Below the pieces are notes generated by a model. It did not search any database and was not told the DNA's origin. It saw nothing but the letters and a program-made list of their open reading frames with translations. The position numbers were made by a program, and so were the translations under genes. From NCBI GenBank assembly GCA_000992085.1, contig LBTN01000013.1, positions 1 to 39,438 of the forward strand: 39,438 nucleotides of DNA, written 5' to 3'. Below are positions 3,755 to 38,547 of the stretch, piece after piece. This DNA comes from Candidatus Magasanikbacteria bacterium GW2011_GWA2_37_8 (GTDB lineage: Bacteria > Patescibacteriota > Patescibacteriia > Magasanikbacterales > GWA2-37-8). Each line of letters starts with the position of its first letter. Position 1 is the stretch's first letter.

Positions 3755-3827
3755 TGCGCCTGGATGGAATCGGACCATCGACTTCCACCTTATAAGGGTG
3801 GCACTCTAACCGCTGAGTTACAGGCGC
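3755..3827 (-). tRNA. tRNA-Ile (anticodon UAU)
   Basis: GCGCCTG/CAGGCGC acceptor stem, D arm, CCACC-CT TAT AA-GGTGG anticodon arm, GATGG-TCCGATT-CCATC T arm, discriminator A, no encoded CCA. Confidence 0.92.
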
Positions 3828-35071: not shown

Positions 35072-36595
35072 ATGTTAGGAGGGGCGAAAGAAAAAATAAT
35101 TAATTCAAAAAGCAGAACATTTTTATTGTTCTGTTTTTGTTTTATTTTTGGTGTGGGTATTTTTTCTGGTTTCGAACTTGCTGCGTATTGGTTGTATCGT
35201 TTGTATTTGTTGTTGTTCTTATTAGGATTTTTATTAATTTTATTTTGGCATAAAATTAACTGGCGATTTTTTTTGTTGGGCGGGGTATTTTTTGTGTTAG
35301 GTGGAGCACGCTTTATGTTTTCTGTGCCAGCTGAAGATAATCCGAATTTAATTAAATTTTATAATGGAGAACAAAAGGATTTGGTTGGTTATGTAGCGGA
35401 TGAGCCAGAAATCGGAATAGATGGGGCGAAGTATGTAGTACAAATTTTAGATAACAATATTTCAGGTAAAATTTTAGTGAATTTACCTCTTTATCCACAA
35501 TACCAATATGGTGATGAATTAAAATTAAAATGTAATTTACAATCACCAAAAAATTTTGTTGGTAGTAATTTTCGTTATGACAATTATTTGGCCAGGCAGG
35601 GGGTTTGGTCGGTGTGTGGTTCACCTGTCATCCTGAGCGTTGGCGAAGGATCTTCGCCACAATCGTTTGGAATTGCGCTAAAAAATAAAATGTTGATACT
35701 CAAATCGTATGTAGGCGATAAAATAAACACATTATGGCCAGAACCAGAATCAAGTTTGATGGCCGGGTTGTTATATGGCGCGCGTTCTAGCATGCCAGAT
35801 GAAATAAAGAATAATTTTAATAAAGTTGGTCTAACTCATATTGTGGCAATTTCTGGTTACAATATTAGTATTATCGCTGCAATTTTAATGGTTAGCTTGA
35901 TAAGTTTTGGCTTAAATCGTCGACGTGCTTTTTGGTTTTGTATTAGTGGAATAATTTTATTTGTTTTATTTACTGGTGCCACTGCATCGGTTGTGCGTGC
36001 CGGTATTATGGGTATTATTGTATTGTTGGCTAATCAATTAGGCAGATTATCGCGAGTAGGTAATATATTGGTTGCCACCGCGGTGATTATTTTACTAATT
36101 AACCCCTATGTGTTAATTTGGGACGCCGGTTTTCAATTATCTTTTATAGCCACCATGGGGTTAATTTATTTAAGCCCAATTATTGAAGAAAAGATAAATT
36201 TAAATAAAAAATTAGTTGGATTAAAAAGTTTGTTACTAGAAAGTTTGATTTCCACATTGTCGGCCATTATCGCTACGTTGCCACTTATACTTTACCAATT
36301 TGGCAGGTTATCTGTTGTGGCACCATTAGCGAATATTTTAATTTTATGGATAATTCCCTGGTTAATGTTTTTTGGTTTTATTTCAGTTGTATTAAGCGTA
36401 ATATTTTTTCCATTAGGGTTAGTATTAGCTTGGATTACTGGACTAGGATTAAAATATGTTATAATATTAACCGAGTGGTTAGCTGGTTTCTCTTGGTCAT
36501 CGATTGAGATTAGTTTGCCGATTTGGGGGTTGATAGGGTTGTATGTAATTTTGATATTTGTGATAATAAGAAGTAAAAAGAAAATACATTTATGA
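35072..36595 (+). CDS. comEC: ComEC/Rec2 competence protein (membrane/Competence domain)
   Basis: GLTHIVAISGYNI, ASVVRAGIM, GFQLSF, PLANIL. Confidence 0.93.
   Translation: MLGGAKEKIINSKSRTFLLFCFCFIFGVGIFSGFELAAYWLYRLYLLLFLLGFLLILFWHKINWRFFLLGGVFFVLGGARFMFSVPAEDNPNLIKFYNGEQKDLVGYVADEPEIGIDGAKYVVQILDNNISGKILVNLPLYPQYQYGDELKLKCNLQSPKNFVGSNFRYDNYLARQGVWSVCGSPVILSVGEGSSPQSFGIALKNKMLILKSYVGDKINTLWPEPESSLMAGLLYGARSSMPDEIKNNFNKVGLTHIVAISGYNISIIAAILMVSLISFGLNRRRAFWFCISGIILFVLFTGATASVVRAGIMGIIVLLANQLGRLSRVGNILVATAVIILLINPYVLIWDAGFQLSFIATMGLIYLSPIIEEKINLNKKLVGLKSLLLESLISTLSAIIATLPLILYQFGRLSVVAPLANILILWIIPWLMFFGFISVVLSVIFFPLGLVLAWITGLGLKYVIILTEWLAGFSWSSIEISLPIWGLIGLYVILIFVIIRSKKKIHL
35626..35659 (+). 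repeat. REP-like motif in frame in comEC
   Basis: TGTCATCCTGAGCGTTGGCGAAGGATCT plus hairpin TGGCGAAG-gat-CTTCGCCA. Confidence 0.75.
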
Positions 36596-37197
36596 AAAAA
36601 ATAAAAGTTTTATCTTCTTCGGTTGGTTATGATTTGGCCGCTAAAGATTATGATAAGAAAGAATCATATTTAAATAGTTTTGAAACAGACAAATTGTTGC
36701 CTTTGCTTGGAGATTTGGACGGTAAAAAAGTTTTAGATGTGGGGGCGGGTACAGGTAGGCTAACATTAAAATTAGCCAAAGCAGGGGCAGAAGTGGTTGC
36801 GCTTGATGTGTCAGAGGAAATGCTTAAAAGAATTATGAATTATGAATCAAGAATCAAGGTAGTGATTGGTGATGCAGAAGATTTGCCATTTCCAAATGAG
36901 AGTTTTGATTTTGTTACTGCTGCTTTTTTAGTTGTTCATTTAAAAGATTTGGAACGGTTTTTTGATGAAGTTTACAGGGTATTAAAACCAAATGGTAAAT
37001 TTTTAGTCACTAATATTAATCAAAAAGAACCGCCAGAAGTAAATACAAAAGAGGGGATAATAAAAATAGAGTCATATTATCATCGGCCAGAAAAAGTAGT
37101 AGAGGAGTTGGAAAAATTAGCATTTAATATTGAGAAAGAAGAATTTGTTAAAGAAAATGAGGTGTGGATTAATCAAATTATTTTGGCGAGCAAATAA
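36592..37197 (+). CDS. Class I SAM-dependent methyltransferase
   Basis: VLDVGAGTG, GDAEDLPF..ESFD, RVLKPNG. Confidence 0.92.
   Translation: MKKIKVLSSSVGYDLAAKDYDKKESYLNSFETDKLLPLLGDLDGKKVLDVGAGTGRLTLKLAKAGAEVVALDVSEEMLKRIMNYESRIKVVIGDAEDLPFPNESFDFVTAAFLVVHLKDLERFFDEVYRVLKPNGKFLVTNINQKEPPEVNTKEGIIKIESYYHRPEKVVEELEKLAFNIEKEEFVKENEVWINQIILASK
36826..36859 (+). repeat. In-frame heptamer repeat in the methyltransferase
   Basis: TTATGAA x2 TCAAGAA TCAAGG, encoding RIMNYESRIK. Confidence 0.8.
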
Positions 37198-37199
37198 TC

Positions 37200-37669
37200 A
37201 CTTCTTTACACACCAACCGTTCTTTATATATTACAGGCCAATTGCCTCTTACTTTTTTGAAAAAGTAAGCAAAAACTTCGAGCTGGTGGTTCGTGTCGGA
37301 TAATTTAGGGTTCATTAATGTTTTTGACTCGAACTCCCCCGCATACTGCGGGGTCAAACAACGAGTCAAATCCGCCCGTAGGGCGGATCACATTAATTCA
37401 CCTCTAAATTAAACCTCACTCACCAAGGCTCGGGACAGTTGGTTGGCCAACGTTGGCCAGGCGAGCGTTGAGAATTTAGAATGGTAATTAAGAGATGGAG
37501 TATGAGTGTCCCCGCAGGGGTTTGGCTCGTTGTTTGAGCGAAGCGAGTTCGAGCCAAAAACGAATACGCAATCCTTAATTAGCGTTCTAACATTCTCATT
37601 GTCTCGCGATTTCTTTGAGTCCCTTTCTTATAAAAGAAAGGGACAAGAACGGGTGGTATGTGAAGAAGT
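37200..37669. other. Highly structured, two-fold symmetric non-coding element (MITE/REPIN-like or structured RNA)
   Basis: 25-bp terminal inverted repeat (22/25 match) enclosing two inverted multibranch modules and a central 16-bp palindrome. Confidence 0.8.
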
Positions 37670-37686
37670 ATTAAATAAGAAAGATT

Positions 37687-38547
37687 ATGAAAAAAATAAT
37701 TATAGTCCTATTAATACTACTTGCGTTGGTTTTAGGGCTATTTTTTTATATAAAATTTTATTCTTCAAACAAATTTCAGATTATTTTTTTAAACGTTGGT
37801 CAAGGTGATTCTGCTTTGATTAAATTTCGTAATGGCGAAAAAATGTTAGTTGACTGTGGGCCAGATCGAAAGATTCTATCTAAATTAGGGCAATATCTGC
37901 CTTTTTACGATCGCACAATTGATGTTTTACTTGTAACACACCCGGATTTAGATCATTATGGTGGCTGTGCAGATATTTTAAAACGTTATCAGGTAAAAAA
38001 GATTATTACTAATGGTGAAATCAAAGATTCTGACCCGTTTTTTCAAGTATGGCAAAAAATGGTAATGCAAGAAAATGCAGAAAATTTAGTAGTTTTTTAC
38101 CCTGAAGAAATAATTATTGCCAGTACCACTTTTAAATTTTTATCACCGGATAATAGTTTGGGTTTAGAAGATAAAATAAAAGAGGGTAATAATAACTCTA
38201 TTGTTTTTCAATTACAGGATTTGGCTGTTGGTAAAGTTTTGTTTACCGGAGATATGGAATTACCTTTAGAAAATGCTTTGTTAACAAAATATTGCCCAGA
38301 TTTTACATCTTCTACCTTACCCTGTCCGAGTTTGCAATCCGATTATCTCAAAGTTGGTCATCACGGCAGTGATAGTTCTTCGGGTGATAATTTTTTACAA
38401 GCAGTTAATCCAAAAGTATCAATTATCTCCGTTGGCAAAAATACTTTTGGCCATCCTTCGTTTCGAGTGTTACGACATTTAGAAAGAGCTGGTACAGTAA
38501 TCTGGCGGACAGACGAAAAAAATGATATAATAATTGGAGAAAATTAA
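37687..38547 (+). CDS. ComEC-type metallo-beta-lactamase-fold protein (stand-alone)
   Basis: N-terminal TM, NVGQGDS, THPDLDHYGG, NNNSIV, LFTGD, KVGHHGS, FGHP. Confidence 0.92.
   Translation: MKKIIIVLLILLALVLGLFFYIKFYSSNKFQIIFLNVGQGDSALIKFRNGEKMLVDCGPDRKILSKLGQYLPFYDRTIDVLLVTHPDLDHYGGCADILKRYQVKKIITNGEIKDSDPFFQVWQKMVMQENAENLVVFYPEEIIIASTTFKFLSPDNSLGLEDKIKEGNNNSIVFQLQDLAVGKVLFTGDMELPLENALLTKYCPDFTSSTLPCPSLQSDYLKVGHHGSDSSSGDNFLQAVNPKVSIISVGKNTFGHPSFRVLRHLERAGTVIWRTDEKNDIIIGEN

Follow-up and report, generated by a model that had tools for sequence, protein, structure and literature searches.

A two-armed hairpin repeat of a Magasanikbacteria genome with an apex common to many phyla: a candidate non-autonomous mobile element

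Repetitive extragenic palindromic (REP) sequences are palindromes located between genes, often arranged as inverted doublets, which form single-stranded hairpins, occur at gene ends and have reported effects on termination and mRNA stability. The attC sites of integrons are imperfect palindromes whose structure is conserved and of which one folded strand is active; their boxes lie at the foot of the hairpin, and they need an integron integrase and a cassette array. HUH origins usually consist of a conserved loop on variable, covarying stems. The element described here, which is compared with these systems, lies at positions 37200-37669 of a 39,438-nucleotide stretch of Candidatus Magasanikbacteria bacterium GW2011_GWA2_37_8 (contig LBTN01000013.1), and this whole stretch is called the window. 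An earlier note made from the letters of the window had singled it out as a two-fold symmetric, structured, non-coding element, and had taken it for either a non-autonomous mobile element of single-stranded DNA (ssDNA) or RNA or an undescribed structured RNA. That alternative is supported by the present analysis. Neither of the outcomes named as speaking against it, namely a match to a described family or a lack of homologues and covariation, was obtained; copies of the core are abundant and dispersed, and their stems covary.

Further points of reference come from published work. According to PMC4598088, the single-strand origin ssoA combines a structured region with two conserved sequences, the 6-nt CS-6 (TAGCGT) and, lying about 50 nt upstream, the RSB TTATGCCGAGAAAATTT. 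The sequences CTGCGAAGCATA and ccgcgtagcgca are given, in the accessible part of PMC11685472, as the ops sequences of two Bacteroides fragilis capsule operons. The motif GCGNAGC/GCGNNAGC is named an extraordinarily stable "mini-hairpin DNA" in the abstract of PMC13037366.

On balance, and with moderate confidence, we regard the element as a non-autonomous, hairpin-based palindromic repeat that is mobile, or at least duplicative, and that belongs to an undescribed cross-phylum family. The apex of its hairpins is almost invariant across phyla while the stems diverge yet stay complementary. The family is built from single arms, which occur more often solo than in pairs; this corrects the two-fold description of the earlier note. 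An arm is an imperfect hairpin of 100-270 nt, the apex of which reads TGTYTGA, then a GCGNAGC or GCGNNAGC mini-hairpin or sometimes a longer hairpin, then GAGTT. The copy in the window has two such arms, called L and R (Table 1), which have unrelated stems and meet head to head at a central palindrome.

The signature of the apex is the 19-mer TGTTTGAGCGAAGCGAGTT. Its exact sequence was found in at least 120 genome stretches of a species-representative genome collection, against a chance expectation of about 4 (our own estimate from 596 Gb, two strands and 4^19); figures for individual loci below are drawn from the matches listed. The titles of these listed matches name Bacteroidota, Bacillota, Pseudomonadota, Patescibacteria, Nitrospirota, Acidobacteriota, Elusimicrobiota and other phyla. 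Among the carriers listed are Parabacteroides, Bacteroides, Flavobacterium, Elizabethkingia, Lachnospiraceae, Clostridia, Megamonas, Variovorax, Ralstonia, Iodobacter, Saccharibacteria, Gracilibacteria, Magasanikbacteria, Nitrospirales, Acidobacteriota and Elusimicrobiales. When 60 relatives of the source genome (36 of the same family) were searched by BLAST, the core was found only in G021, which belongs to another genus. Its copies are solo arms with a fully compensated stem, TTTGGGCC/GGCCCAAA replacing TTTGGCTCG/CGAGCCAAA. The BLAST match in G010 was limited to the terminal hairpin.

The sequences on both sides of the 19-mer pair with each other. In 80 of 103 listed instances the flanks are complementary over at least five contiguous positions, a figure reached by 5.3% of random flanks. 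In an alignment of 114 distinct sequences, all nine flanking-stem positions vary on both sides. The doubly changed cells number 359, where shuffles gave 169 ± 15 and none of 500 reached this figure; lower scores were obtained in shifted registers, and the single fixed register used suits only part of the 114 sequences. In folds of wider contexts the family hairpins were between 33 and 267 nt long, the median being 118 nt. Within the source genome, 9 of 53 consensus pairs of the L arm (five copies) and 4 of 52 of the R arm (four copies) are changed on both sides, and one stem occurs as UUUGACUCG/CGAGUCAAA, UUUGUUUCA/UGAAACAAA and UUUGGCUCG/CGAGCCAAA in different copies. The compensatory A-T/G-C difference that the earlier note saw between the two modules of the window copy was also recovered (TTTGACTCG/CGAGTCAAA against TTTGGCTCG/CGAGCCAAA). 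Its broader statement that structure rather than sequence is conserved holds for the stems, which covary, but not for the apex, whose sequence is extremely conserved.

The mini-hairpins found at the apex are GCGAAGC, GCGTAGC, GCGCAGC, GCGGAGC, GCAAAGC, GCGTAAGC, GCGTTAGC, GCGCAAGC and some longer GC stems with GNA loops, and most of them fit GCGNAGC/GCGNNAGC. The hairpin enclosed by TGTTTGA and GAGTT measures 7 to 17 nt among the copies of the source genome. Hammerhead and loop-E readings of the apex were rejected on inspection. A K-turn, which consists of a canonical stem, a 3-nt bulge and tandem G·A and A·G pairs, seems improbable; tandem GA was seen beside the mini-hairpin, with a 5-nt/3-nt internal loop on the other side and no Watson-Crick pair adjoining the bulge.

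Along the motif strand, the arm leads into a T-rich linker and then into a small hairpin with T-tract and A-tract arms. This layout of linker and hairpin is present in Parabacteroides, Elizabethkingia, Gracilibacteria, Variovorax, Ralstonia, Megamonas and the window, and the linkers of other phyla (CTTGATTTTTT and similar) resemble that of the window. On the motif strand, 22 of 99 hairpins have a T-run downstream, compared with 7 of 99 that have an A-run upstream. In several lineages the loop of the terminal hairpin is complementary, with covariation, to the first bases of the linker (CTTGATC/GATCAAG in Parabacteroides, TCGCC/GGCGA in Variovorax), a pairing absent from the window copy. Where two arms are paired, they always differ in stem (types A and B in Parabacteroides, L and R in the window genome), and one giant perfect palindrome is thereby avoided.

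The two strands of the arms are not equivalent. Mismatches were counted in the 99 of 106 hairpins whose two sides were aligned, and each was read on the strand carrying TGTTTGA...GAGTT. On that strand G·A occurs 427 times against 124 for C·T, which is the same event seen from the other strand; G·T occurs 241 times against 143 for A·C, and G·G 116 times against 52 for C·C. This asymmetry indicates that the element is constrained as a single strand. Both arms of the window copy are also more stable on their motif strand, the R arm with -53.6 kcal/mol on the + strand and -39.3 on the - strand, and the L arm with -75.6 kcal/mol on the - strand and -71.7 on the + strand.

The orientation of the arms follows a rule. 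The 120 listed loci comprise 98 solo arms, 21 (-,+) pairs, one (+,+) pair and no (+,-) pair; 15 pairs are spaced 219-453 bp, and 12 (-,+) pairs lie in one Parabacteroides chromosome. In pairs, the two active strands diverge from the centre. Since the (-,+) order prevails, the two-fold design seen in the window is the standard paired form of the family. Solo arms showed no clear bias, being co-directional with the upstream open reading frame (ORF) at 23 and opposite to it at 17 of 40 usable loci, by a crude ORF call that leaves out 75 single-motif loci (33 at a locus edge, 32 inside an ORF call and 10 far from an ORF).

Copy numbers were counted with a relaxed apex pattern or with up to two mismatches, and the reversed-pattern control is not independent of them, the motif being partly self-matching backwards. 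The counts are 73 in Megamonas (2.3 Mb), 50 in Iodobacter, 32 in Parabacteroides, 12 in Variovorax, 11 in Nitrospirales and 6 in the Magasanikbacteria genome. A further 100 genomes were sampled from the order to which the Iodobacter genome belongs, and none rose above background, the top count of 10 being similar to the control; this tally includes one unpublished genome, G136, on which no other result depends. In the phylum of the window a match was found in 14 of 201 sampled genomes, with the highest number (7) in the source genome and 1-4 in the others. The element was matched in 27 of 41 Parabacteroides genomes. High counts in some genomes and a patchy spread resemble the pattern of a selfish element.

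Empty sites in relatives, which the earlier note had proposed as a check, were met in Parabacteroides as filled/empty polymorphism at matching loci. At one locus the flanks of the element, about 10% diverged, adjoin each other without it in another species; an AT-rich inverted repeat on the outside is part of the inserted block, and a 5-bp duplication is possible and doubtful. At two other loci, the exact place of a 450-bp unit in the Parabacteroides genome G061 is taken in relatives by a short hairpin that belongs to this outer repeat and has a small, variable interior. The inner unit of Parabacteroides has crisp inverted ends, GTTAC...GTAAC, with unrelated flanks in 12 copies, and small hairpins come and go at the centre of these elements. 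Hairpin tips are thus repeatedly the place of insertion or replacement, which may reflect targeted insertion or repair at fragile palindrome centres.

Two further observations were made in Parabacteroides. At six loci of relatives (L167-L169, L234-L236) a second, smaller palindromic repeat with outer arms AAATGATGATTTATCGG/CCGATAAATCATCATTT lies at gene ends; its interior is variable, and one species has a GC-rich module at two loci in opposite orientations. In G061 a gene for a YhcG/DUF1016 nuclease of the PD-(D/E)XK type (L265:7647-8711) is located within a run of menaquinone biosynthesis genes, and this run is flanked by two half-elements 10.3 kb apart.

The source genome (G000; 865 kb in 44 contigs, 90% complete) holds the element at six loci including the window, with 77-97% identity, and the element is no single-copy RNA gene. 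When the genome was compared with itself by megablast, 22 self-match rows reached 150 bp or more; of these, 18 belonged to the family and the other four were two local tandem duplications; the element is the only dispersed repeat (at least 150 bp) in this genome. Its copies lie between tandem, convergent and divergent genes. An outward-directed gene begins 18-228 nt past the right end in 4 of 5 copies, and 3 of 6 copies are within about 1.1 kb of a contig end. No copies other than that of the window and that on contig C12 have the 25-nt terminal sequence at each end. The copy at C6:30.7k carries an insertion of about 117 bp (C6:31089-31205), placed precisely at the loop of its right terminal hairpin; a stretch of 43 nt from this insertion is repeated at C5:63559-63601 and C43:679-717, and holds a hairpin followed by a T-run.

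In the window, the gap at 37198-37686 between two + strand genes is wholly taken up by the element, the anatomy of which is given in Table 1. The structural claims of the earlier note were all borne out at the positions it gave. An inverted-repeat search recovered the pairing of the termini, both end hairpins were found with fully complementary arms, and the inverted copies of the core were located in both modules. The two GC hairpins and the central palindrome can be read directly in the sequence, and the long imperfect stems closing the junctions appear in the minimum-energy folds of both strands. The + strand folds with -211 kcal/mol against -125.1 ± 6.1 in 100 shuffles (z -13.98, 0 as good), and the - strand with -196.8 kcal/mol against -117.7 ± 6.1 in 100 shuffles (z -13.0, 0 as good). 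The G+C content of the element reaches 0.42-0.47, and that of its flanks is about 0.32. As the earlier note held, there is no credible ORF; those within the element are 45-100 aa long and overlap, and their frames are broken by indels between copies.

Table 1. Features of the element in the window (window coordinates) and its further copies in the source genome (contig coordinates)
Feature	Position	Strand	Remarks
Left terminal inverted repeat	37200-37224	strandless	reverse complement of right end, 25 nt, 22/25 = 88%
Left-end spacer TATATATTACAGGCCAATTGCC	37225-37247	strandless	common to copies with L-type end (C13 = window, C6:30.6k, C11)
Left terminal hairpin	37248-37269	strandless	T-tract/A-tract arms CTTACTTTTT/AAAAAGTAAG, 10-nt arms, 100%
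L arm	37276-37434	motif on -	long imperfect stem closing junction of apex hairpin and GC hairpin
L-arm long stem	37287-37321 with 37390-37425
Inverted conserved core, L arm	37320-37373
L-arm apex motif	37332-37360	-	TGTTTGA-[CCCCGCAGTATGCGGGG]-GAGTT; in other copies the flanks enclose GCGAAGC or other hairpins
L-arm GC hairpin	37370-37388	strandless	ATCCGCCC-GTA-GGGCGGAT, in junction; stem conserved, loop variable between copies
Central perfect palindrome TGGCCAACGTTGGCCA	37444-37459	strandless	16 bp, on dyad axis between arms; 1-3 changes in other full copies; matches itself on - strand
R arm	37466-37601	motif on +	long imperfect stem closing junction
R-arm long stem	37476-37492 with 37574-37590
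R-arm junction, GC hairpin	37510-37520
Inverted conserved core, R arm	37518-37561
R-arm junction, apex hairpin	37521-37558
19-mer TGTTTGAGCGAAGCGAGTT	37531-37549	+	with GCGAAGC mini-hairpin; cross-phylum signature
T-rich linker GTCTCGCGATTTCTTTGA	37602-37618	+	joins R arm to terminal hairpin
Right terminal hairpin GTCCCTTTCTT-ATAA-AAGAAAGGGAC	37619-37644	strandless	11-nt arms, 100%
Right terminal sequence AAGAACGGGTGGTATGTGAAGAAGT	37645-37669	strandless	at R end of every full copy
Copy	C6:7508-7956		90%
Copy	C6:30686-31253		91%, with insertion
Copy	C5:28131-28562		79%, inverted
Copy	C12:65781-66249		two R-type arms
Copy	C11:58-260		solo L-type arm at contig start

The gene upstream of the element (36592-37197, +) encodes a class-I methyltransferase and the gene downstream (37687-38547, +) a metallo-beta-lactamase-fold protein, the start codon of which the element abuts. 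The domains of ComEC are split here between a 507-aa protein (35072-36595) with DUF4131 and Competence domains and a separate 286-aa protein with the metallo-beta-lactamase domain, encoded by the downstream gene; the two halves are separated by the methyltransferase gene and the repeat element. A sigma-70-like match at 37453-37482 (+) begins in the central palindrome and is directed into the R arm. Another at 37205-37232 (+), with 10 of 12 positions, lies in the left terminal repeat, points inward and overlaps the left spacer; such a match is no sign of a function, and the number of these matches does not exceed that expected from shuffles. The sole Rfam match in the window is a tRNA gene at 3755-3827 (-).

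How such a repeat might spread can be outlined as follows. The arms would act as a folded single strand, which could be ssDNA on the lagging-strand template, an extruded cruciform or RNA. A trans-acting enzyme, by which the element is copied or moved, would have its site of recognition or nucleation at the apex, and new copies would tend to enter the apex of existing hairpins, giving nested palindromes. The fit of most apex sequences to mini-hairpin DNA, and a GTTA loop that is not GNRA, lean towards DNA. Side effects of the element on its host are likely. The arm with its T-run would stop transcription leaving the element, and the right end may read outward into the next gene.

A more far-reaching possibility is held only tentatively, and we think it rather doubtful. 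The family might be a new cross-phylum class of gene-less mobile elements, in which a hairpin or cruciform directs insertion into hairpin tips via an enzyme new to transposition, or else a new widespread structured RNA. The enzyme could then possibly be a host factor of replication, repair or transcription that all bacteria share, and the invariant parts would be only the 19-nt apex around the DNA mini-hairpin and the small A/T-tract terminal hairpins.

Several results weigh against a mobile, duplicative repeat. The left terminal repeat is absent from 3 of 5 full copies in the source genome, which also corrects the earlier note. The left 25-mer is confined there to element copies (7 sites, up to 5 mismatches), and no insertion sequence (IS) with the same ends was found. 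The space between wide arm pairs is occupied by ordinary genes or lacks a long ORF, and it contains no transposase. Profile searches of the source genome, which is 90% complete, detected no Y1/RAYT gene (PF01797; 6 of 14 control genomes had one), no TnpB (PF07282) and no IS110 DEDD recombinase (PF01548), and the neighbours of the window copy are the methyltransferase and the metallo-beta-lactamase-fold protein. As the earlier note had stated, no target-site duplication was recognised at the window copy, nor was one at the other copies of the source genome, and the single 5-bp candidate in Parabacteroides is doubtful. Two of the three "empty" loci already hold a palindrome in relatives, and replacement instead of insertion is possible. 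The patterns used for the distribution were strict, and absence is consequently overstated. In addition, template switching can keep the arms of a palindrome complementary, so covariation alone is no proof of selection; the purine-rich asymmetry of the mismatches suggests, however, that selection acts besides template switching. Finally, the T-run after the arm and the terminator-like end in Megamonas would equally fit a role as RNA.

Such a role we consider unlikely. The arm would in this case be either a structured RNA or else a 3'-end cassette made of a very stable hairpin and a U-run, and the copies would form a paralogous RNA family carried on the repeat. Transcription would diverge from the centre, or the arm would end transcripts crossing the element; in either way neighbouring transcripts would be terminated, insulated or stabilised by it, or a conserved protein would dock at its apex. 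The greater stability of the motif strand in both window arms is consistent with this, as are the enrichment of G·U-type and G·A-type mismatches on that strand, the excess of T-runs after the hairpin (22/99 against 7/99 for upstream A-runs), and the Megamonas unit, which closes with a terminator-like site on the motif strand. A symmetric pair would serve transcription from either side, and a sigma-70-like match leads from the central palindrome into the R arm. This match would nevertheless initiate inside a stem and has no mirror image for the L arm. No convincing promoter was found upstream of the arms: the scan of the window picked up 4 promoter-like sites, where shuffles gave 2.5 ± 1.6, and nothing terminator-like, and that of Megamonas gave 1 promoter-like site against 2.6 ± 1.9. 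Solo arms are present in both orientations to their neighbours (23 against 17 of 40), the GTTA loop common in Megamonas is not GNRA, and no Rfam family was matched.

A cis signal of the rolling-circle type, either an ssoA-like single-strand origin or an HUH nick-site hairpin with one per strand, appears very unlikely. The conserved loop on covarying stems is the usual pattern of HUH origins, AGCGA occurs twice in the apex, proteobacterial arms have GCCGAG about 45-50 nt upstream at the hairpin foot, and CTTGAT follows the arm in copies of Bacteroidota and Gracilibacteria. The architecture also matches that of ssoA as described in the available text of PMC4598088, and the mini-hairpin is a DNA motif according to the accessible part of PMC13037366. 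The likeness, however, amounts to 5-6 letters; RSB and CS-6 are absent from 37198-37686, and the window copy, like Variovorax, lacks CTTGAT. The source genome yielded no Rep, Y1 or Y2 gene, although the Y2 profile matched none of the control genomes either. No phage record matched, and 5 of 59 instances in IMG/VR have the flanking stem. A pause or recruitment site of the ops type is highly improbable. GCGNAGC on the non-template strand would be bound by NusG or a paralogue, and the element would act as a mobile transcription insulator. The same 7-nt hairpin does occur within the apex motif, but ops sites in the available text of PMC11685472 lie in operon leaders and not at the tips of 100-bp stems in dispersed repeats, and the flanks TGTYTGA and GAGTT have no counterpart in the two sites quoted there. 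Copies of the element are also found after genes and between convergent genes.

The search for a mobiliser or a described relative of the repeat was extended in several directions. Rfam 15 gave nothing in the element at gathering thresholds and, with E values up to 10, chance-level matches far below threshold; none of 18 related loci matched either. Literature searches returned no description of the family, including in the available text of a survey of MITEs, the miniature transposable elements with inverted repeats (PMC11602168), whose supplements might list it; subscription journals lay outside these searches. Papers with the core in their text treat unrelated subjects, to judge by titles and opening lines of abstracts. 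Around the 120 listed loci no protein family recurs, the largest cluster consisting of spurious ORF calls that run over the GC-rich repeat. In G061, what the terminal hairpins enclose is either a unit of about 450 bp or ordinary genes, and no autonomous version was seen there. Contigs from four DNA sequencing runs were compared with the window and none spans an empty site; the repeat fragments contigs. Among the sequencing runs listed for the locus there is none of RNA. FopS, a 65-70-nt small RNA with a single-stranded 5' seed and a terminator, is restricted to Bacteroidaceae and deposited in Rfam according to the accessible part of PMC11697453. It was rejected as a relative; size, shape and range are wrong, the arms here being 100-270 nt.

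Phage records contained no match to the element of the window or to that of Parabacteroides. In IMG/VR, 60 contigs carry the 19-mer and 59 instances were examined; 42 and 8 of them lie in two conserved contexts of predicted (pro)viral contigs, without stems, which are probably coding or unrelated, and 4 in scattered single contexts. With 50 of 59 instances in stemless contexts, no lead towards ssDNA phages was obtained.

Among the kinds of co-occurring genes that the earlier note had suggested looking for, four reverse transcriptase (RT) genes were found in the source genome (C5:70735-71406, C3:38982-39671, C12:18499-19002 and C40:3868-4434), all below the cut-offs of named families. None of the four is near a copy, and no link to the element was found. 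Two of the RTs, 375-392 aa long, are closest to group II intron RTs and far under the cut-off. One of the four has an in-frame stop. A 500-aa RT is Drt4/Drt3b-like and adjoins a 363-aa protein with an HNH-like tail.

It is unusual for a 19-letter sequence to be identical in the streamlined Patescibacteria of groundwater and in gut Bacteroidota, Negativicutes and Burkholderiales of soil, and an identical apex on fully diverged stems implies either a partner that very different cells share or a horizontally moving element of great success. If mobile, it is a repeat that thrives without a recognisable transposase, in an 865-kb genome without other dispersed repeats. Should the apex bind RNA polymerase or NusG, a primase or a nuclease, then the machinery in question would have in it a handle that is compact and portable. 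Because the elements fill whole intergenic regions beside gene starts, they probably shape the expression of neighbouring genes. They also break metagenome assemblies, as seen in the copies near contig ends (3 of 6).

Compared with known systems, the element resembles each in part. Like integron attC sites, the arms are imperfect palindromes with conserved structure and one folded DNA strand, but here the apex is conserved, and no array or integrase context is present at the window, where no search aimed at an integrase was made. With ssoA, as it appears in the available text of PMC4598088, they share a long imperfect hairpin, a function as a single strand, conserved apical and foot sequences and variable stems; the window lacks CS-6 and RSB, however, and the element is chromosomal, dispersed and an inverted pair, with no rep gene adjacent. 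The ops and opsX sites of RfaH/UpxY, which are NusG paralogues, also have a core GCG(N)NAGC hairpin on one DNA strand according to the accessible part of PMC11685472, whereas location and context differ and the 19-mer extends past the 12-nt ops. PATEs derived from IS200/IS605, or TnpB-associated RNA, go with a TnpA or TnpB gene in the genome and with asymmetric left and right hairpins on one strand; neither gene was found in the source genome, and the arms here are on opposite strands. The DEDD recombinase gene that adjoins the structured RNA of an IS110 bridge-RNA element was likewise not found there.

The REP/BIME/REPIN sequences associated with RAYT are closer. They too are palindromic extragenic repeats, arranged as inverted doublets, forming single-stranded hairpins at gene ends and containing no internal gene. 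REP units, however, are 20-40 nt long and genus-specific, whereas the arms here measure 100-270 nt, contain a junction and have an apex found in many phyla, and no Y1 gene was found in the source genome. The MITE and foldback elements such as Correia/NEMIS, RUP and Nezha are likewise short, non-coding, multi-copy and mostly intergenic, with inverted ends, long hairpins and a patchy distribution. The terminal inverted repeats expected of a MITE are seen in the window (22/25) and are crisp in Parabacteroides, but the 25-mer is at one end only in 3 of 5 full copies, and neither a parent IS with the same ends nor a clear target duplication was found. Unlike in MITEs, it is the apex of the hairpin and not the termini that is conserved: the same apex is carried across phyla on stems that covary, with mismatches that are strand-asymmetric.

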